Origin: an uncultured Chloroflexia bacterium
GTDB taxonomy: Bacteria > Chloroflexota > Limnocylindria > Limnocylindrales > CSP1-4
DNA: 64,000 nt
Direction of reading: 5' to 3'
Assembly (NCBI GenBank): GCA_963710105.1
Contig: CAVPYV010000002.1
Coordinates: forward strand, 116,972-180,971
This document shows, in pieces, positions 1 to 12,654 of this stretch (positions within the stretch are counted from its first letter, which is position 1; every line of letters starts with the position of its first letter). The translations under genes and the position numbers were made by a program. The notes beneath the pieces were generated by a model. That model was not told where the DNA came from. It saw only the letters and a list, made by a program, of their open reading frames with translations, and searched no databases.

Positions 1-1182
1 AAGATCCGGGTGGCGATCGTCGGCGTCGGCAACTGCGCGAGCAGCCTCGTCCAGGGCCGCTACTACTACGAGAACGCCAAGGTCGAGGACAAGGTCCCGG
101 GCCTGATGCACGTCGAGCTCGGCGGCTACCACGTCCGCGACATCGAGTTCGTCGCCGCCTTCGACATCGACAAGAACAAGGTCGGCAAGGACCTGTCCGA
201 GGCGATCTACACGAAGCCGAACAACACCTACGTCTTCCACCAGGTCCCGAAGCTCGACGTCAAGGTCGAGCGCGGGATGGTCCACGACGGGCTCGGCAAA
301 TACCTCAGCCAGATCATCGAGAAGGCTCCGGGCGAGACCGCCGACGTGGTCGGGATCCTCAAGGAGCGCCAGGTCGACGTCGTCGTGTCCTACCTGCCGG
401 TCGGCAGCGAGGAGGCGACGAAGTGGTACGTCGAGCAGGCGCTGCGGGCCGGCGTCGGCTTCGTCAATGCGATCCCGGTGTTCATCGGCCGCGAGCCGTA
501 CTGGCAGCGCCGCTTCGCCGAGGAGGGCCTGCCGGTCATCGGCGACGACATCAAGAGCCAGGTCGGCGCGACGATCAGCCACCGCGTCCTGACCCGCCTC
601 TTCATGGATCGCGGCGTCCGGCTCGACCGGACGTACCAGCTGAACTTCGGCGGCAACACCGACTTCCTGAACATGCTCGAGCGGGAGCGGCTCGAGTCGA
701 AGAAGATCAGCAAGACGAACGCGGTCACCTCGATGCTCGACTACGAGATGGACCCCGACAACGTCCACGTCGGCCCGAGCGACCACGTCCCGTGGCTCGA
801 GGACCGCAAGTGGTGCTACATCCGGATGGAGGGCACGACGTTCGGTGACGTGCCGCTCAACGCGGAGCTGAAGCTCGAGGTCTGGGACAGCCCGAACAGC
901 GCCGGCGTCATCACCGACGCCGTCCGCTGCCTGAAGCTCGGCCTCGATCGCGGCCTCAAGGGCACGCTCGTCGCGCCGTCGAGCTACTTCATGAAGAGCC
1001 CGCCGATCCAGATCCACGACGACATCGCCTACAACCGGGTCGAGGCGTTCATCCGGGGCGAGGACAACGAGACGCTGGTCGGGACCGAGAACCTGACGAA
1101 GGCGCAGCTGAGGAAGCTGGCCTCGACCGCACCCGTCGCCGGCGCGGCCGGCAAGAAGGCGGCGGCCGCCGCCCCGAGGTGA
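1..1182 (+). CDS. ino1: myo-inositol-1-phosphate synthase (5'-truncated by window edge)
   Basis: Reads [19 protein letters not shown] from base 1; [31 protein letters not shown] and VWDSPNSAG motifs of the bacterial Ino1 family. Lys/Ala-rich C-terminal tail. Confidence 0.95.
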
Positions 1183-2309
1183 CCGTGGCCAAGGGCGCCG
1201 GCTCGGGCCTCGACGCACCCCACCGGCGCCGCGCCCAGGGCCCGCGGATCGTCGAGAAGACCGCCGTCACGGCCTACGCCGCGGCGGTCTGGCTGGTGGC
1301 CCACGTCCCGGCCGGCCTCGCCCGCTGGGTCATCGCGACCGGCAGCCAGGCGGGCTACCTGCTGTGGCCGACGAAGCGGCGCTGGTCGAACCAGAACTTC
1401 GGGAAGGTCGCCGGCCTTCCGCCGGACGACCGCCGCGTCCGCCGGCTGGCCCTGTCCGCGTACCGCGAGTACGCCCGCTACCTCGTCGAGGTCATGCGCC
1501 TCGAATCGCTCTCGCCGGACGAGGCGGTGGCGCGCGTGATCCAGCCGGACCTCGACCGGATCGAGGCGGAGTGGCGGTCGTCGCCGGGCGGCCTGATCTT
1601 CGCCCTCGGCCACGTCGGCAACAACGAGGCCGTGGCCGCCGGGGTCGCCGACCGGGGCTGGCCGATCAGCGTCGTGGCGGACGACTCGTCCTTCCCCGAG
1701 ATGTTCGAGCGGTTCCGCCGGCTGCGCGAGTCCTGGGGGATCCACGTCATCCCGTGGCGGAACCTGCGCGAGATCTACGCGGTCCTCAAGCGTGGCGAGA
1801 TGCTCGCGTTGCTCGTGGACTGGGGCTACCGCAGCGACGGCGTGCCGGTCCGCCTGTTCGGCTCGTGGACGACGCTGCCCGCCGGCCCGGCGTCGCTGGC
1901 GGCGAAGACCCGCTCGCGGATCCTGCCGGTCGCGATCCGGCGCGGGTCCGACGGCATGTTCCACGTGTCGTTCTCGCCGACGATCTCGGTCGCGTCCACC
2001 TCCGACGCCGACATCGCCCGGGCGACCCAGGAGCTCGCGGCGACGCTCGAGGCGACGATCGCCGCGGCGCCCGAGCAGTGGTACAGCTTCAAGCCGATCT
2101 GGCCGCCGACCGAGGAGGAGGCCGCCGGGCTCGAGGCGCGGGCGGCCCGGATGCTCGCCGGGGCCGCCGCCGAGCCGCCAGCGGTCGCCGCCGAGCCGGC
2201 GGAGCCCGTCGCCGGCGAGTCGCCCGACCTCCTCGTCCCGACGATCGCCGACGCCCCGGGGGCGGGCGACCCAGCCACGATCCCGGCGCCGGATCGCGCC
2301 CCGTCGTGA
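1179..2309 (+). CDS. lipid acyltransferase, LpxL/HtrB/PatA family (copy 1)
   Basis: GHVGNNE catalytic-His motif, ALLVDW, VRLFG and PEQW motifs; GTGA overlap with the ino1 stop. Confidence 0.85.
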
Positions 2310-3337
2310 CCGGGACGCCGGTCCAGCGGGCCCGCGTGGCGCTCCTCCGCGGTCTCTCGTGGATCGCCTGCCGGCTGCCCGAGGGCGTGGCGGTCGGGCT
2401 GGCCGAGGTCGTCGGCTGGCTCTGGTCGAAGCTCGCTCCGGAGCGCGCGGAGCAGGCTCGGCGGAACTTCAGCCGCGTGGCCGCCGCACTCGACGCGGAG
2501 GGTCGGGGGCCGGCGCGCGTGCGAGCCGCGGCGCACGACCGGCGGGCCCTGGATCGGCTCGTGACCGCGTCGTTCCAGCACGACGCCCGCTACTACCTCG
2601 AGGTCCTCCGCGTCCCGAGCCTGACGCCCGCCATCTTCGACCGACGCGTCGTCATCGAGACGCCGGACACCGTCGAGGACGCGTTCAGCGGCGGGGCCGT
2701 CATCTTCGTCGCGGCCCACTTCGGCCCGATCGAGCTGCCCGCGCTCTACCTCGCCCATCGCTCCGGCCGGACGTTCCACGCTCCGATGGAGGCGGTCGAC
2801 GACCCCGCGCTGCAGGGCTGGTTCGAGCGGACGCGAGGCTCGCTCGGCGTGACGATCGTCGGCCTCCGAGCCGCGCGTCGCGAGCTGCAGGCCGCCCTCC
2901 GGGCCGGCGGCGCCGTCGGGATCGTCGCGGACCGGGACATCAGCGGCGGCGGGATCGCGGTGCCGTTCTTCGGGTCTCCCGCCCCGATGCCCATCGGACC
3001 GGCCCTGCTCGCCCTCGAGACCGGGGCGCGGCTGTTCGCCGTCGGGGTGCGGCGCCTCCCGGACGGGCGGATCGCGGGCCGCCTGCTGGCGGTCCCGGTG
3101 GCGAGCGAGGGGTCTCGCCGGGAGCGGATCGCGGCCACGCTGGCGACGATGGCCGGCGCGTTCGAGGACCTGATCGGCGACGCGCCCGAGCAGTGGTCCG
3201 GCGCGTTTTTCCCGATCTGGCCGGACCTCGCGGGCGACGCCTCGGCGGCGGGCGACACCGCCACCGCGGGAGCCGCCTCGGCGGGCGACACCCCCGCCGC
3301 GGACCGAGCCGCGCCCGCGGACGGAGCCGGGCGATGA
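2306..3337 (+). CDS. lipid acyltransferase, LpxL/HtrB/PatA family (copy 2)
   Basis: 3' part of track ORF 1364..3337; GTG at 2306 overlaps the upstream TGA; AAHFGPIE, IVADRD, VPFFG and PEQW motifs. Confidence 0.82.
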   Translation: MTGTPVQRARVALLRGLSWIACRLPEGVAVGLAEVVGWLWSKLAPERAEQARRNFSRVAAALDAEGRGPARVRAAAHDRRALDRLVTASFQHDARYYLEVLRVPSLTPAIFDRRVVIETPDTVEDAFSGGAVIFVAAHFGPIELPALYLAHRSGRTFHAPMEAVDDPALQGWFERTRGSLGVTIVGLRAARRELQAALRAGGAVGIVADRDISGGGIAVPFFGSPAPMPIGPALLALETGARLFAVGVRRLPDGRIAGRLLAVPVASEGSRRERIAATLATMAGAFEDLIGDAPEQWSGAFFPIWPDLAGDASAAGDTATAGAASAGDTPAADRAAPADGAGR

Positions 3338-4179
3338 CCCAGCGCCTCGGCCGGGCCGACCTCCACGTCCACACCCTCGCGTCGGATGGGATCGACCCGA
3401 TCGCGACGATCCTCGACTTCATCGAGCACTCGACCGACCTGGACGTCGTCGCCATCGCCGACCACGAGCGGATCGACGCCGCCGTCGCCGCCCGGACGAT
3501 GGCACGCGAGCTCGGCCACCGCGCCGAGATCGTCGTCGGCGAGGAGGTCTCGACGCTCGGCGGCCACCTCCTCGCCCTGTTCCTCGAGGAGCGCGTCCGG
3601 CCGCTCCGCAGCCTGCGCACGACGATCGCCGAGGTCCACGAGCAGGGCGGGCTCGCGATCCCGGCCCATCCGCTCGTGCCCTACCCGCTGTGCGCCCAGG
3701 GCTGGGTGATCCGACGCCTGCTCGCCGACCGCGATCCGCGCGTCCGGCCGGACGCGATCGAGGCGTTCAACCCGACGATGTTCGGCCGGCCGATGCACGG
3801 CCGGGTCGTCCGCTTCGCCGAGGAGCTCGGCCTGGCCACGGTCGGCAACAGCGACGCCCACGAGGCGCGGACGATCGGGACCGGCTGGACGTCGTTCCCG
3901 GGCCGCACCGCGGAGGACGTCCGGGCAGCGATCCTCGAGGGCACGACCCATCACCACGGCTCGTTCCACGCTACCGGCGGCCAGGTCTCGACGTTCGGCC
4001 GGCAGCTCCGCAAGTACTCGCGCGACGCGCGGGCCGTGGTCGGCGGCAAGGTCCGCCGCGACGGGACGGGTCGCGACCTCGGCTATCCGGGCGGCCGGCA
4101 CCGGCCGCCGCGGTTCGAGGAGGAGTGGATGGCGCGCCGGACGAGCCACGTCGAGGCGGAGCAGAATCGCCGCGAATGA
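3334..4179 (+). CDS. PHP-family phosphoesterase
   Basis: 3' part of ORF 1792..4179; ATG 3334 overlaps the upstream TGA; DLHVHT-x2-SDG, ADH, GEEV, GHLL, AHP and GNSDAH metal ligands intact. Confidence 0.88.
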   Translation: MTQRLGRADLHVHTLASDGIDPIATILDFIEHSTDLDVVAIADHERIDAAVAARTMARELGHRAEIVVGEEVSTLGGHLLALFLEERVRPLRSLRTTIAEVHEQGGLAIPAHPLVPYPLCAQGWVIRRLLADRDPRVRPDAIEAFNPTMFGRPMHGRVVRFAEELGLATVGNSDAHEARTIGTGWTSFPGRTAEDVRAAILEGTTHHHGSFHATGGQVSTFGRQLRKYSRDARAVVGGKVRRDGTGRDLGYPGGRHRPPRFEEEWMARRTSHVEAEQNRRE

Positions 4180-5420
4180 AGATCGGCCTGGTCACGCCGT
4201 ACGTCTACCCGCTGCCGGGCGGGGTGACCCAGCACGTCCGCTATCTCTACGAGAACCTCCGCCTGCGCGGCCACGACGTCCGGATCATCTCCTCGTCGCA
4301 CGGCCTCCAGCGGGCGTCGGAGGGCGACATCATCCGGATCGGCAAGGGCTTCTCCCTGCCGGTCAACGGCTCGGTCGGGACGATCACGCTGTCGCCGCGC
4401 TTCGTCTCCCAGGTCCGCGGCATGCTCGAGCGCGAGCAGTTCGACCTTCTCCACTACCACGAGCCGTTCGTCCCCTTCCTCTCGCCGATCATCCTCCGCC
4501 TCTCGACCAGCGTGAACATCGCGACGTTCCACGCCTACGGCGGCTTCTCGCCCTCGTACGAGTTCGGGAGCAAGGTGATGAAGGGCGAGGCGGCCCGGCT
4601 CCACGGCCGGATCGCCGTGAGCGGAGCCGCGAAGCACTTCATCGACCGCTACTTCCCGGGCGACTACAAGGTCATCCCGAACGGCGTCGACGTCCACGCC
4701 TTCCAGCGCGCCGTCCCGCTCGCCCGCTGGCAGGACGGCACCCGCAACCTGTTCTTCGTCGGCCGGTTCGAGCCGCGGAAGGGCCTGATCGAGCTCCTCA
4801 AGGCGTACCGGATCCTGCGCAAGACCGGCTGCGACTGCCGCCTGCTGGTCGCCGGCACCGGGCCGCTCGGACGGGAGGCCCGGCGCTACGTCGCGACGCG
4901 CCGGCTGAAGGGCGTCGAGTTCCTCGGCCGGGTCAGCGACGAGGAGAAGGCCCAGCTCTTCCGGACCGCCGACGTCTACGTCTCGCCGGCGACCGGCGGC
5001 GAATCGTTCGGGATCGTGCTCCTCGAGGCGATGGCCGCCGGCACCGCGATCGTCGCCTCCGACATCCACGGCTACAAGGGCGTCCTGCGCCGCGGTCGAG
5101 AGGGGCTGCTCGTGCCGCCCCGCGAGCCGAAGGCGATTGCCGCGGCGATCGGCCGCCTCCTCCGTGACGACGAGCTTCGGGCGGCGATGGGCGAGGCCGG
5201 TCGGGAGCGGGCCGAGGAATTCAGCTGGGAGCGGGTCACGGCCAAGGTCGACGCCTACTACGGCTTCGTCGTCCGGCGCCTCGCCGCGCGTGGCGAGCTG
5301 CCGCTCGGGTTCCACGCGGCCGTTCCGCCGTCGCCGCGGTCCGGTCCGGCGCCGTCCCCCGAGGCGGCCGAGCCGGAGAGCGCAGTCGAGCCGGAGCAGC
5401 TCGCGGTCGACCTCGACTAG
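4176..5420 (+). CDS. pimA: GT4 glycosyltransferase, PimA-like alpha-mannosyltransferase
   Basis: MKIGLVTPY-x4-GGV, HEP, VIPNGVD, FVGRFEPRKG and GESFGIVLLEAMAAG motifs; context next to ino1 and PatA-like genes. The family call is firm; the pimA name rests on context. Confidence 0.75.
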   Translation: MKIGLVTPYVYPLPGGVTQHVRYLYENLRLRGHDVRIISSSHGLQRASEGDIIRIGKGFSLPVNGSVGTITLSPRFVSQVRGMLEREQFDLLHYHEPFVPFLSPIILRLSTSVNIATFHAYGGFSPSYEFGSKVMKGEAARLHGRIAVSGAAKHFIDRYFPGDYKVIPNGVDVHAFQRAVPLARWQDGTRNLFFVGRFEPRKGLIELLKAYRILRKTGCDCRLLVAGTGPLGREARRYVATRRLKGVEFLGRVSDEEKAQLFRTADVYVSPATGGESFGIVLLEAMAAGTAIVASDIHGYKGVLRRGREGLLVPPREPKAIAAAIGRLLRDDELRAAMGEAGRERAEEFSWERVTAKVDAYYGFVVRRLAARGELPLGFHAAVPPSPRSGPAPSPEAAEPESAVEPEQLAVDLD

Positions 5421-5505: not shown

Positions 5506-8500
5506 TCAGTCGCCCGCCGCCCCGCCGCCGGCTCCGCGCGGCCAGCCCGGTCCGAGCTCGGCGGCATCGCCGGCATCGGCCAGCCGCTCGGCGATCGCGA
5601 GCCGCCAGACCCAGGCCGAGTAGCCGACGACGAGCGCGAGGAACACGACCGCCGCGCCGAGCAGCAGCGGGACCGGCCCGAACAGCTCGGTCTTGACCGT
5701 GGCCGCGACGTTGTTCACCGGGAACTGGAAGGCGTACAGGTAGGTCGGCAGGACGCCCTGGTAGACGTTGGCGATCGCCGTCGGCAGGGGCAGCGCGCTG
5801 AAGTTCGGGTAGACGATGACGAACCAGCCGACGATCGCGACGATCGCGCCGACGACGAACCGGCGGGCATCGCGGGCCGTCGCGACGAACGCCGCGATCA
5901 GCACCGCCGGCAGCGCCAGGACCATCGCCACCGGCTCGACCGGGATGCGGTCGAGGGTGATCAGCGGGCTGTCGGTGATCGTCACCTGGACGAGCCAGCT
6001 CGCGACGATCGCTCCGAGCGCGGTCAGCCCGAGCCAGCCGAGCGTCACCGTCGACGGGCTGAGCTCGCGGCCGCCCACGACGATCGCCCGATCCCCCACC
6101 ACCCGCTCGTCGCCCAGCCGCCCGAACAGGCGAACGACCACGAGGACCGAGATCCCGACGATCAGCGCCATGGCCGCGGTCTGGTTGGTCAGCAGGAACT
6201 GGGGGATGACCGGCGGGCAGGCCTGCGAGCCGGGGTTGGCCTTCTCGACGTTGACGAAGCCGCACAGGGGTCGGTCGAACACCCAGAAGATCGCCGGGCC
6301 GAGGATGGCGACCGCGGCCGCGAGCCGGGCGAGCAGCCACGTCCGCCACGAGGCGCCGTGCCACAGCTCGCCGAGGAAGTAGGCCAGGGCGAGGATCAGG
6401 AACGGCAGGCTCGTGTAGTAGTGGTACTGGAACGCCGCCCGGTCGATCCGGGCCCAGGAGACCCACTGGAAGGCGTAGCCGATCGTGATCAGGGCGAGCG
6501 GCAGGCTCCGCCGGGCGAACGCCTGCCACGCCGCGAACCCGAGGGCCGGCAGGCCGAGCCACCAGACCACGATGTTGCCGGCGTCGTAGATCGCCGCGGT
6601 CGTGTTGCCGGCGAAGCCCTCCTGGTAGAACCAGACCGGCTTCAGGTCGAAGAGCCAGGCCCACCAAGGCGACGATGCGGCGTGCGGGGCGGTCAGGCCG
6701 TTGTGGTAGTTGTACATCGCCCCGGTGAGGTCGGTGAGGCTCTGGCCGGAGTGCCCCGCCGGCCAGCCGGCGAACAGGACGTGGTTGTCGAGGACGGCCC
6801 ACGGGATGTACGAGACCACGTAGATCGCGACGGGCAACACGAGCAGGCAGCCGACCATCCAGGCGACGGGCAGCCCGAGCTGGGCACCCGGCCGGAGCCA
6901 GGCCGCGGCCGGTGGCGGAGCCGGTGGCGGCAGGAGCGCGGCGGGCTCGTCCGGACCCGGGTCCGGCGCGAACGGCCCGAACCCGAGCCGCGCCGCCACC
7001 GCGAACCCGGCCCATGCGACGAGCCCGACGGCCGCCAGGGCGACCGCCAGCTCGAGCGGCGTGACCGTCGCCGACGACAGCGTGATCTCCCGGGACGCGC
7101 TGTTCGTGGCGATCGCCACGAGCGCCACGATCCCGCCGAGCGCCACCGGGCCGCCGATCGCGAAGCGGATCTCGTCGAGCGACCAGCGCAGCGGATGGAG
7201 GACGTTGGCGACCACGGCGGCAACGGTCAGGGCGACCATGATCGCGATGAACGGGAGGTTGCCGAACCCGGTCCCCTGCGGCACGTTGATCGCCAGGTAG
7301 CCGAGCACCGCGGTCATCACGACGAGGGCGGCGATCGCGAGGAGCCGGCCGAGGGCGCTCCGGACGAGGACGAGGAAGCCCATCCCGACGATCGCGTACA
7401 GGGCGACCCACTTCGAGGCGAGGGCCAGGCCGAGCAGGATCCCGATCAGCGGCATCGCGATCCAGAACGCCCCGCGATGGCGCCAGACGCCCGTCCACAG
7501 CGCCGCGAACAGGGTGTAGGCGGCGACGATCCCGAGCCCGACGTAGGCGTCGTTCATCCCGATTCGCGACTGGACGAAGAGCATCCCGTCGGCGACGCAC
7601 AGGATCGCGACGAACACGCCGACGATCCGCCGCCGGAACAGGATGCGGGCGAGGACGAACAGGAAGCCGGCCATCACGGCCCCGGCCAGGACACCGGGCA
7701 GGCGCCAGGCGAACTCGTGCTGGCCGACATCGACGCTGGCCGCCGCCCCGGCGCCATCGAAGACCAGGATCTGCTGGCGGTCGTCGGTCGGATAGGGCCG
7801 GGCGACGTCGACGGCCCAGGCGGAGGGCTCGATCGGCAGGCGGGCGTCGGCGAACACGGCCCGGGCGTGCGGCTCGATCACGTAGATCGTGGCCGAGCTG
7901 CCGTCGGGCGTCCGGCCGAGGACGTGGACCATCTCGCTCGCGTCGTCCCACGCGACCCGCGTCACCGGGCCAGGCATCGCCATCGACTCGAGGAGGGCGG
8001 GGCCGTCCTTCGCCTGGTCGCCGCCGACGGCGACGATCGCGATCCGGCCGCGCTGGTCGGTGGCCGGGTCCGGGTCGGTGCTGACGTAGAGCTTGTCGCC
8101 GTCGACGGTCGTGAGCGCGAGGCCGTGCGCCGCGCCGCCGACGTCGACGGTCGAGGTGAGATCGCCGCTGGCCGGGTTGATCAGCTCCAGCCCGCTCGCG
8201 TCGGCGACCGCGACCTGCGGCAGCGAGTCGATCGTCAGGCCGGCGAGGCGCCCGTCGTCGATCGCCGCCTGGACCGTCGTCCGGGCCGAGCTGCCGGGGA
8301 TGCCGGCGACGACGAGGCGGTCGGCGGTGCCGGAGAGACGCGCCTCGTACGTCGCGGTCGAGCCGCCGATCAGGGCGGCGATGGCCGAGGCGGCGGCCGT
8401 TGGATCCTCGACCGAGCCGGGCGCGCCGACGAGGGTCGGGGCGGTCCCGCCGGGGCCGATGTCGGCGACCGCCTCGAGCTGGACCGTCCCGCGGATCTCG

Positions 8501-11062
8501 GCCGTCGTCGGATCGAGGGTCCGGACCTGGCTGTCGGAGGTGACGACGAGGATGGCCGAGCCGTCGTCGGGCACGTAGAGGCGGTCGATCGCGCCGTCGA
8601 CCTGGCCGAACCGCTCCGGCTCGGCGATGTCGGCGGTCGAGCCGCCGGCCCGGAGCGAGTCGAGCGTGCTGAGATCGAACGTCCAGATCGTCCCGTCCGA
8701 CGAGCCGATGAACAGTCGGTCCTGGGTCGAGTCGACGGCGACTGCCGCGGCCCCCTCGATCGGCATCGTCGCCACCAGGGCACGCGTCGCGAGGTCGTAG
8801 GAGCGCAGCTCCGAGCCGGTGACGATGTCGACCCGGTCGCCCGCCCGGCCGTCGGGCAGGAACCCGTCGTCGAACCGGCGCTCGATCGTCGCGTCGAGGA
8901 CCGGCACGCCCAGGTTGCTCGTCGCGGTCACCCGGTCGTCGCCCCAGGCGACGAGTCCGCCGGCCATGGCGTACTTGGCGAGATGGGGGTGGGTCCACTC
9001 GTAGATGTCGTGGTCGATGCCGTAGCGCCAGTCCTGGAGGAACTCGGTCGCCGTCCGGGCGTGGTAGACCTCGTCGAAGTGCATCTGGTAGGGCTCGGAG
9101 AGGCGGAACATCCGGATCCCGAGAACGGCGACCACGAGGACGACGAGGAGCCACAGGTCGAGGCGGTCGAGGCGGCCCGGCGGCTCGTCGTGGAGCTCGT
9201 GCGATCGGTCCGCGCGGACCGGTCGCTGCTCAAGGCGGGCGCGGAACCACCCGATCGGGCCGGCTTCGGCGAAGGACGGCGGCTCCGACCACGTCGGGAA
9301 CGTGGCCGCGGCCGGGGCGGCGACGGCCGTTCCGCCGGCGGCCGACGTCGGGCCGGCCGGGTCGGCCGCGAACGCGGCGCCCGCCCCCGCGGTGGCGCCG
9401 GCCCGGCGGGTCCCGGCCGCCAGGCGCGTCGCGTCGGCCGCGGGGTGCGGCCACGGGGCGGCCGGGTCATCGGCCGCCTGGTCGTCGGACGCCTCGCCGG
9501 CGGCCTCGCCGAGCTCCCGCTCGAGGGCGGACCGGGCGGTCGGCCGGAGCTGGGCGAACGCCCAGAGCGCGGCGGCGAGGGCCGCCAGGGCGATGAGGGT
9601 CACCCCCGTCGAGCCGCGGATGCCCGGCCCGATCCCGAGCCAATCGGTGATCCCCGGGTTGTCGCCGTAGAGCGTCGTCAGGACGACGTACATGTTCAGG
9701 AACGTCGTCAGCGACAGCACCGCGTAGGCGATCCGCCAGCGGACGGAGATCGCGGCCAGGATGGCGCCGAGGGCGACGAGCGGGAAGAGGTAGCGCTCGT
9801 GGACCCGGGTGGGGAGGATGAAGAAGGCGATCGCGAGGATCGTCACGCCGGTCAGGATCACGAGCGGCGTCGGCCGCCGGGCGACCAGGACCGAGACGAT
9901 GACGAAGGCGGCGAGGAGCAGCGCGGCCCCGACGAACACCGCCGGGATCGGGCCGACCATCACGGCCTCGGGGCAGGAGGCGCCGCCGGGCGGAGGGGTC
10001 GTGATGACGGTGTCGCACGCCCACTGGCCGTTGGCGGCGACGCCGACCCCGTCGATCGAGGCGAGGGCCCACGGGTTGTAGGCGTTGACGCTGGCGTAAG
10101 GGTACCCGCCGGCGGTCTTGAAGACCTGCTCGATCAGCCCTGAATGGAAGACCTCGCCGTCGTGACCCGGCTCGATGACCGACAGGCCGAACGGAAAGCA
10201 CAGGACGACCGCCGCCAGGAACCCGGCCAGCCCGGTCGTGAGGATCCGGATGGGATGATCGGTCCGCCGCTCCCACCTCCGGAACCGGGCCCGGGCCCGG
10301 GTCAGCCCGGCGGCGGCCCCGGGCCGGCTCGGGGCGGCGTCGTCCGCGGCGGGCTCGGCCGCGGGCGCGGCGGGCTCCGCTGCACGCGCTGCGGGCTCCG
10401 CCGGTCGATCCGCCGGCCACAGCGCCCGCCGGATCGTCACGATCGCCACGATCGGGGCGAGGATCGCCGAGCTGCGGCTTGATCAGCGCCGCGACGACGG
10501 TCAGGATCGCGGCCCGCTCGGGGCGGTCGCGCCACAGCTCGCGGAGGCCGAGCAGGAGGAAGATCACCCCGAACGAGTCGACCTGGCCCCACAGGACCGA
10601 GTCGAACCAGGTGACCGGGTTGACGACGACGAGGGCCGCCCCGATCAGGCCCGCCCGGCGGCCGCCGCCGAGCTCGCGGACCATCGACCAGACCAGCCAG
10701 CCGAGAACGACGTCGGACAGGATCGGCGGGATCTTGATCAGGTCGCCGATGCTGCCCGTCGCGTTGCCGACCAGCCCGACCACGTACAGGACGTAGAGGT
10801 ACCCGGGCGTGTAGTCGTGGAAGAACGGGCGCTCGTAGAACCCGTGGAGGCCTTCGCTGCCGAGGTTGCCGGCCCACGCCTGGAACGACGCCAGGTCGAC
10901 CCTGAACCCCGACCCCGGGTTGAGCTGTGCGATGATGAACCGGAAGACGAGGCCGAGCGCGAGGACGGCGACGATCGCGCCGATGCCATCCCGCGTCCAG
11001 GTGGTCCGTGTCGGCGTGTCCGCGTCCCGGCTCGGTCCGCCCGACACGCGGCCGGACGTCAC
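5506..11062 (-). CDS. ~1,850-aa polytopic GT-C fusion (N-terminal GT-C module + protein O-mannosyltransferase-like module), interrupted by a 1-nt frameshift near 10465-10468
   Basis: ORF 9467..11149 carries the N-terminus (DLASFQAW, DYTPGY, NP-x4-DS-x2-WGQVD, LIKPQ). ORF 5506..10449 continues the same domain (YASVNAYNPW, TRVHERY) and then PMT motifs (FDEVYH, HPHLAK, FAWR, SRIGMND, SKW, H-x3-SPWW-x-W, KPVWFY). Removing one base restores LIKPQL(G/A)ILAPIVAIV. GTG 11062 is preceded by GGGGAG. Confidence 0.8.
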
Positions 11063-11091
11063 GGGTTGGATCTCCCCGAACGAGCGTTGAG

Positions 11092-12654
11092 GTGGACCGC
11101 AGGGTAGCACAGGGCCGACCGCCACTTGCCCGGGGCTTCCCGACGCCATCGCCGTTCACCGCGATCGCGATCGGCTCCGCCCTGGTCGCGGTCGCCCTGG
11201 TCGTCTACACGCTCAGTCATCCCTACCGCTTCTACAACCATTTCGAGTGGCAGGCGATGGCGTTCCTGGAGGGCCAGGCGGCGATCCGCTACCCGGTCCA
11301 TGCAACGGCGACGTCGCCGTTCGCGAACGACTTCTTCCAGGACGTCCTGCCGGTCCCGACCACGGACGGGATCCCGCGCGGCCTGGTTCCGTTCCCGCCC
11401 CTGCCGGCCGTCCTGCTGATGCCGTTCGTCGCCCTGTGGGGCCTCGCCACCGACGGCCAGCTCGTGTTCGCGATCCTCGGCGCGCTCGACGTCGGGATCG
11501 CCTGGTGGATGCTCGGGAAGCTGCCGATCCGGACGTGGGTCCGGATCGCGACGACCGTCTTCCTCGGGTTCGGGACGGTGTTCTGGTATGCCGCCCAGAT
11601 CGGGACGACCTGGTACCAGGCCCACGTCCTCGCGGTCGGCCTCGCCCTCGCCGCGATCGGGGTTGCGCTGGGCGGTGATCGCGATGCGGCCCGGAGCGAG
11701 GACGACCTCGACGACGCGCTCGACGGCCCGGACGAGCTCCGGGACCCCCCGGCGGGGCTCGCGGCCGCGACACCGCCGGGCGCGGTCGGCGGTGTCGCGA
11801 TCCCGACGCCATGGCCGCGGATCCGTCTTGCCGCCCTCGTCCCCGATCGCCGTCAGTTCGTCGCCGGCTTCCTGTTCGGGCTGGCCTGCACGTCGCGGCT
11901 CACCGTGGCGTTCGCCGCGCCGTTCTTCGTCCTCGTCGGCTCGGGCGGCTCGTGGCAACGGCGCGGCTGGTCGGCGGCGCTCGGCGCGGGGATCCCGATC
12001 GGCCTCCTCGTCGTCTACAACCTCGTGTCGACCGGCCACGTCTTCCACCCCGGCTACGAGTACCTGTACAAGCTCGAGGCGGGGTTCTACATCCCGTTGA
12101 ACTACCACCTGGACTGGCAGATCGAGGACCTTCGCTACCTGCCCCAGAACTTCGCGATCATGTTCCTGGAGACCCCGGTCTGGCATCCGACCGTCGTCCC
12201 GTCGGCGCTCGGCCTCGGCGGGCCGCTCTGCACCGACCCGGCCGTCCGCGGGATCTTCGATCTCCGATGCCCGCTCGTCCTGCCGCGCGACACCGGGATG
12301 AGCATCCTGCTCACAAGCCCGGCCTACCTCCTCGCCCTGCCGGCGATCCGCTGGGGCTTCGGGCGGAGTCGTCTCGTGACCGGGGCCGGCCTCGCGGTCC
12401 TGATCGTGGCGTTCGTGAACCTCATGCATTTCAGCCAGGGCTGGGTCCAGTTCGGCTACCGGTTCAGCCTCGACTTCGCGCCGTGGGCGATCCTCCTCGT
12501 CGCGGTCGGGCTGGAGCGCCTCGCGGCGCGGACGGGGCGGCCCGGCGGACGGGCGGTCGCGTGGGCCCTCGTCGTCGTCGCCCTGCTCCTCGTCGTCGCG
12601 TCGGTGCTCGTCAACCTGTGGGGCGTGGTCTGGGGCGACGCGCTCGGATGGTGA
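11092..12654 (+). CDS. uncharacterised GT-C-superfamily-like membrane protein (start uncertain)
   Basis: Multiple TM helices with YNHFEWQAMAFL, PFPPLPAVLL, YNL, TSPAYL and QFGYRFSLDF motifs typical of orphan GT-C proteins; the only plausible in-frame start before TM1 is GTG 11092. Confidence 0.6.
   Translation: MDRRVAQGRPPLARGFPTPSPFTAIAIGSALVAVALVVYTLSHPYRFYNHFEWQAMAFLEGQAAIRYPVHATATSPFANDFFQDVLPVPTTDGIPRGLVPFPPLPAVLLMPFVALWGLATDGQLVFAILGALDVGIAWWMLGKLPIRTWVRIATTVFLGFGTVFWYAAQIGTTWYQAHVLAVGLALAAIGVALGGDRDAARSEDDLDDALDGPDELRDPPAGLAAATPPGAVGGVAIPTPWPRIRLAALVPDRRQFVAGFLFGLACTSRLTVAFAAPFFVLVGSGGSWQRRGWSAALGAGIPIGLLVVYNLVSTGHVFHPGYEYLYKLEAGFYIPLNYHLDWQIEDLRYLPQNFAIMFLETPVWHPTVVPSALGLGGPLCTDPAVRGIFDLRCPLVLPRDTGMSILLTSPAYLLALPAIRWGFGRSRLVTGAGLAVLIVAFVNLMHFSQGWVQFGYRFSLDFAPWAILLVAVGLERLAARTGRPGGRAVAWALVVVALLLVVASVLVNLWGVVWGDALGW

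Follow-up and report, generated by a model that had tools for sequence, protein, structure and literature searches.

A PHP_C-family metallo-phosphoesterase in the inositol-lipid operon of Chloroflexota is a candidate phosphatidylinositol-phosphate phosphatase

Prokaryotic phosphatidylinositol (PI) is made by way of phosphatidylinositol phosphate (PIP), and the only assigned phosphatase for this step that we found is that of Bacteroides. This protein, BT_1525 (PIPPh) of Bacteroides thetaiotaomicron, belongs to the PgpA family, and its role is supported by a knockout (PMC9246714). The PIP phosphatase has been called unidentified in mycobacteria (PMC6506517), and a review from 2022 that covers lipid synthesis in archaea and bacteria describes the step likewise (PMC9385802). 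EphE, a protein of the epoxide-hydrolase family, has been proposed as the mycobacterial enzyme, without biochemical proof (bioRxiv 10.64898/2026.07.15.738315). A sequence-only reading of the DNA described here held that the dedicated PIP phosphatase is not firmly assigned, which is accurate for mycobacteria but not for Bacteroides. In a literature search that reached few subscription journals, we found no assignment for Chloroflexota and no paper tying PHP proteins to PIP dephosphorylation. A supposed connection of Desulfovibrio Agt to a PHP domain was rejected, as the paper does not contain it.

Here, we examined a stretch of 64,000 nucleotides from an uncultured Chloroflexia bacterium of the Ca. 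Limnocylindrales (Chloroflexota), hereafter the window, in which a gene for a PHP protein lies within an inositol-lipid operon. The mycobacterial pgsA1-patA-pimA operon shares with it a core of PIP synthase (PIPS), PatA and PimA, whereas the Chloroflexota operon adds ino1, a second PatA-like gene, an ArsR-like gene and the PHP gene. The PHP protein is the best candidate for the enzyme that converts PIP to PI in these Chloroflexota, because it keeps its place beside the enzymes that act just before and just after the dephosphorylation. We consider it probable that this candidate is a three-metal, peripheral-membrane PIP phosphatase.

The operon has the order ArsR - PIPS - ino1 - AT1 - AT2 - PHP - pimA, where AT1 and AT2 are acyltransferases, and its start, with the promoter, the ArsR-like gene and PIPS, lies upstream of the window (Table 1). 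The four junctions from ino1 to pimA are each a 4-nt overlap, GTGA or ATGA. The translational coupling of PHP between the acyltransferases and the PimA-like gene, noticed in the sequence-only reading, is thus borne out, and the neighbours are as described there. No terminator-like site was found on the coding strand of the operon. NF005919, a model of PIM acyltransferases, is the best match for both AT1 and AT2, yet both score below its cut-off. This tandem PatA-like pair (1179-3337 of the window) recurs across Chloroflexota, and the two enzymes might perform two different acylations, on mannose and on inositol. The product of the GT4 gene matches M. smegmatis PimA with an E-value of 4e-64, while the next GT4 reaches 2.5e-23 and PimB' 1e-16. 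Its GG loop, R197, K202 and E276 are invariant in 43 homologues, and by these sequence comparisons the gene is a true PimA orthologue. Facing the operon is a gene of 1647 amino acids with PMT and PMT_4TMC matches (5506-10449, minus strand), whose position is kept across Limnocylindrales loci. Beyond it, 11008-12654 (plus strand) encodes a hydrophobic, apparently multi-pass membrane protein of 548 amino acids that has no Pfam match. Only small shares of the stretch were present in sequencing runs. In three RNA libraries, contigs that come from relatives span the PHP gene, a presence that is no proof of transcription.

Table 1 Features of the operon, in window positions unless another sequence is named.
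Feature	Coordinates	Strand	Basis
sigma-70-like promoter	L001 10753-10782, upstream of window		1 found vs 0.1 expected from shuffles
ArsR-like gene	before PIPS, upstream of window		label from sequence pattern
PIP synthase (PIPS)	G000:C2:116187-116903, upstream of window		CDP-alcohol phosphotransferase; best solved relatives are PIP synthases
ino1, myo-inositol-phosphate synthase	1..1182, start just upstream of window	+	Pfam PF01658, TIGR03450
PatA-like acyltransferase 1 (AT1)	1179..2309	+	PF03279; best NCBIfam model NF005919, E 1.2e-47
PatA-like acyltransferase 2 (AT2)	2306..3337	+	PF03279; NF005919 E 1.2e-38; ~30% identical to acyltransferase 1
Candidate PIP phosphatase, PHP_C-family metallo-phosphoesterase, 281 aa	3334..4179	+	ORF, Pfam, fold model, ligand alignment
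Nine metal-ligand codons of PHP	3364..3861	+	ligand alignment
Ligand codon starts	H11 3364, H13 3370, D18 3385, H44 3463, E71 3544	+	
Ligand codon starts, continued	H78 3565, H112 3667, D174 3853, H176 3859	+	
Basic C-terminal helix of PHP (residues 214-236), putative membrane-binding element	3973..4041	+	helix in model, homologue charges
PimA orthologue, GT4 phosphatidylinositol mannosyltransferase	4176..5420	+	E 4.4e-64 to M. smegmatis PimA

The PHP frame, with its ATG at 3334 and its TGA at 4179, encodes 281 amino acids. Its G+C content is 0.954 at the third codon position versus 0.51 at the second, which is the base pattern of a real gene. The sole Pfam match of the protein is PHP_C (PF13263; E 1.4e-14, 53.8 bits against a cut-off of 21.3). 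It has no IMPase domain (PF00459), and the Pfam search gave no match to PF04608, the domain of the BT_1525 type. All nine metal ligands, H11, H13, D18, H44, E71, H78, H112, D174 and H176, are present in the motifs HxH...D, DH, E...H, HP and SDAH, and an alignment shows them kept in 35/35 PI-linked homologues. The AlphaFold2 model, which has a PHP fold, was built from an alignment of 125 rows and reached a pLDDT of 94.4, while a single-sequence fold gave 38. The best Foldseek matches of the model are all PHP proteins, and at 15-25% identity these solved relatives are too distant for structure to name the substrate. The gene is thereby confirmed as a member of the PHP superfamily, in its PHP_C branch, with the intact metal site that had been read from the sequence. 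A predicted complex of PHP with PimA scored 0.00, which counts neither for nor against the assignment. A second PHP_C paralogue (G000:C2:about 219000-219809), 33% identical and with Glu replacing H78, has an mreB-like gene on one side and a membrane-protein gene on the other.

The need for a phosphatase in this pathway can be read from PIPS. Two arginines, R153 and R191, mark PIP synthases, which use inositol phosphate (PMC4634129), and 118 of 120 aligned loci retain the equivalents of both. This assembly alone has Gln (CAA) at the R191 position (L001:11855-11857). A contig differing by that letter alone over 262 bases has Arg (CGA), and the RNA-library contigs also read CGA; the Gln probably reflects either a fault in the assembly or variation between strains. 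Because PIPS keeps both inositol-phosphate arginines, the pathway makes PIP, and a phosphatase is required before PimA can act. A search of the source genome, which is 82% complete, gave no PgpA (PF04608), the family to which the Bacteroides enzyme belongs. In that same assembly PIPS is the only CDP-alcohol phosphotransferase found, so nothing points to PGP synthesis, and the CDP-DAG-derived lipids of the source organism may be mainly inositol lipids. The PF00459 family has two members in the genome, both outside the operon, where a SuhB-like gene is found.

Homologues of PHP were found in 195 of 251 Chloroflexota genomes. PIPS has a match in 242 of the 251, which makes co-occurrence at the level of genomes uninformative, and gene order was used instead. 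Most of the closest relatives of PHP (80-88% identical) belong to genomes that carry the label Ca. Limnocylindrales or Chloroflexota, and its neighbours are conserved in 50/50 close loci, within the extent of each contig. Among 60 loci, which were hand-picked by rank and family and are therefore not a random sample, PHP lies inside the PIPS cluster in 32, from 19 Chloroflexota families and including the 23 best-scoring loci. The closest homologues are thus nearly always found in a PIPS cluster, and not mostly apart from PI genes.

The linkage also outlasts changes in the rest of the operon. PHP is still with PIPS where ino1 lies outside the cluster (L082, L088, L091, L100 and L107) and where both acyltransferases are missing (L090 and L102). 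In Ktedonobacteraceae the operon can be reduced to a minimal ArsR-PHP-PIPS unit (L098, L118, L185, L188 and L189) or to PHP-PIPS (L187). Two genomes with an intact ArsR-PHP-PIPS unit, G139 and G187, have ino1 elsewhere, and no PimA-like gene was found genome-wide in either. In G077 and G147 one PHP accompanies PIPS and another accompanies pimA and the acyltransferases; in L194 PHP is with pimA and PIPS is on another contig. The neighbours that recur through these rearrangements are the enzymes that immediately flank the PIP-to-PI step in the pathway. The earlier suggestion that the position of PHP in the operon fits PIP dephosphorylation is therefore supported, as a candidate assignment, by the persistence of the gene with PIPS or PimA in independently rearranged operons. 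One of the loci (L100) is from the cultured Thermogemmatispora carboxidivorans, which carries the operon; in a cultured Ktedonobacteraceae species of the related genus Dictyobacter, PI is a major lipid (PMC12453558). Many single-copy fusions of PHP with an acyltransferase or PimA (50-80% identity) were dropped from the counts, since assembly errors at the 4-nt overlaps may have produced them by read-through. Near ino1 in L090, L092, L095, L099, L102, L110 and L177 there is a gene from another PHP-like family (cluster c11).

A second phylum provides fusions of another kind. Operons of the form PIPS-ino1-[PimA-like::PHP] were found in L213 (named Thermoleophilia), L216 and L217, and 7 GT4::PHP fusions were found among 121 genomes of this phylum, the count being restricted to a recurrent group of 28-36% identity confirmed on contigs. 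The fused GT4 is degenerate: its GG loop is lost, as is the Arg of its RFEPRK motif. The fused PHP represents a second subfamily, in which Glu replaces H78. Two of the fusion operons have a PAP2_3 gene upstream of PIPS (L216:3201-3953 and L217:3109-3900), which is either a competing phosphatase candidate or a phosphoinositol transferase.

Several features of PHP bear on how it could reach a lipid. Across the 35 PI-linked homologues, the tail has a median net charge of +4 and the core one of -7. In the protein of the window, a hydrophobic loop follows H112 beside the active site. In the model, the basic C-terminal helix and this loop suggest membrane binding. The basic tail, acidic core and hydrophobic loop are compatible with a peripheral membrane enzyme; the amphipathy signal is weak, the hydrophobic moment of the tail having a mean z of only 0.8 over shuffles, and this weak amphipathy is common to PI-unlinked homologues too.

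The proposed pathway can be described as follows. By homology, Ino1 would make inositol phosphate, which PIPS would join to CDP-DAG to form PIP. PHP would then dock on the inner membrane surface by means of the basic helix and the hydrophobic loop described above. In its three-metal site a metal-activated water would attack the phosphate, by analogy with other PHP enzymes. PHP would thus remove the ring phosphate of its presumed substrate PIP, and the resulting PI would be supplied to PimA. Again by homology, PimA would mannosylate PI and the two PatA-like enzymes would acylate the product.

The association of PHP with PIPS is not exclusive. Forty PIPS loci from genomes with PHP absent or elsewhere were compared by BLAST and ORF listing; among the matches listed, PHP is beside PIPS only in L174, where the two are convergent, and the clusters have no room for a replacement phosphatase gene. 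The PHP_C model found nothing in 13 of 31 genomes with PHP absent or away from PIPS, and PgpA was not found in five genomes with PHP-less operons. PHP is therefore not required in the operon, and other enzymes must do the step in PHP-less operons. Moreover, within one genus of Ktedonobacteraceae, PIPS has decayed in three genomes while the PHP next to it is intact (L182-L184, about 7950-8950), and the lesions differ between the genomes. Intact second copies (L211 and L212) explain the decayed PIPS of G030 and G219; in G131, where PHP is intact and the adjacent PIPS decayed, no intact PIPS was found. On a tree of PHPs, PI-linked and unlinked members are interleaved, so that relocation and paralogy do not separate cleanly.

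Some sister PHPs have other lipid neighbours. In L122 and L130 they are flanked by an SqdX-like GT4 and an SqdB-like gene, in L105 and L113 they adjoin similar GT4 genes, and one is fused to such a GT4 (P0332). The cluster in L122 (4737-8915) and that in L130 are composed of an LPG-synthase-TM gene, the SqdX-like GT4, PHP and the SqdB-like gene. SqdX uses DAG as its acceptor, and this cluster is possibly a sulfolipid operon with PHP as a candidate DAG-supplying phosphatase. The sister PHPs point to a wider lipid-phosphatase role in which PIP need not be the only substrate. Together with the retention of PHP in G131, they are arguments for a general membrane-lipid phosphomonoesterase acting on several lipid phosphates (PA to DAG, or PGP), with PIP as at most one substrate. 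For the PHP of this operon we regard that reading as unlikely: nothing in the operon is expected to use DAG, the single CDP-alcohol phosphotransferase found leaves no sign of PGP synthesis, and the minimal unit pairs PHP with PIPS.

We judge it quite unlikely that PHP is instead an accessory nucleotide or phosphodiester hydrolase, acting on CMP or GDP by-products, pAp or glycerophosphoinositol, or in phospholipase-C-like PI turnover. Its characterised relatives, RNase AM, the 3',5'-bisphosphate phosphatase and a cyclic-phosphate hydrolase, do have nucleotides or RNA ends as substrates, many operons can do without PHP, and the mycobacterial pgsA-patA-pimA operon carries a NUDIX-domain gene. However, the matches to these relatives are weak, and the models for nucleotide and RNA-end PHP enzymes all score far below their cut-offs. 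PHP scores 41.9 bits, over residues 8-75 only, with the RNase AM/YciV model NF047791 (cut-off 375), and 28.5 bits with NF041577, the model of 3',5'-nucleoside bisphosphate phosphatase (cut-off 400); both identities were ruled out. Furthermore, PHP stays with PIPS alone and, in another phylum, is fused to a PimA-like domain.

The inositol-monophosphate role that the sequence-only reading had offered as its second option, in which PHP would make free myo-inositol, is very improbable: although ino1 is in the same operon, HisK-type PHP enzymes dephosphorylate small soluble substrates, and PIPS has Gln at the R191 position in this assembly, that Gln is one base read as Arg in a near-identical contig, the PIPS arginines are otherwise kept, the activity would drain the inositol phosphate that PIPS uses, PHP follows PIPS when ino1 moves away, and a separate SuhB-like gene is present.

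A PIP phosphatase thus remains the preferred reading of PHP, and it may be one case of a broader family function. The PHP_C family has archaeal members too. We tentatively raise the possibility that PHP_C proteins are unrecognised peripheral-membrane lipid phosphomonoesterases, with a PIP branch in many Chloroflexota and Thermoleophilia, sisters that supply DAG to sulfolipid or glycolipid transferases, and archaeal members that might serve the archaetidylinositol-phosphate step.

If the PIP assignment is true, PHP would be the first PHP enzyme with a lipid substrate, as far as we found, and would complete a PIM-type pathway spanning much of Chloroflexota. The gap in mycobacteria is probably not closed by it: a search of the Corynebacterium glutamicum control genome gave no PHP_C, so PHP is probably not the mycobacterial enzyme and is likely lineage-limited. 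The candidate is cheaply testable, as a small non-integral protein with cultured hosts (Thermogemmatispora) and a published host in B. thetaiotaomicron lacking BT_1525.

Among proteins of known structure, RNase AM (PDB 7ug9, 9etk) and the 3',5'-nucleoside bisphosphate phosphatase (PDB 2yb1) share the PHP barrel and the nine-ligand site, at 17-25% identity to PHP and with matches mainly in the N-terminal 75 residues. The best Foldseek matches are TM0559 (2anu) and BVU_3505 (3e38), with E about 1e-11, TM 0.55-0.60 and 17-22% identity; both are uncharacterised and titled 'predicted' phosphoesterases, and thus name no substrate. The lipid-operon context sets PHP apart from TrpH/YciV-type enzymes. 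In comparison with BT_1525, a PgpA-family protein supported by a knockout, the Chloroflexota PHP is supported by context; the two proteins are unrelated and would do the same job. If so, PIP dephosphorylation would have a second, unrelated fold, and PHP is a well-supported candidate for carrying out this known reaction by a new one.
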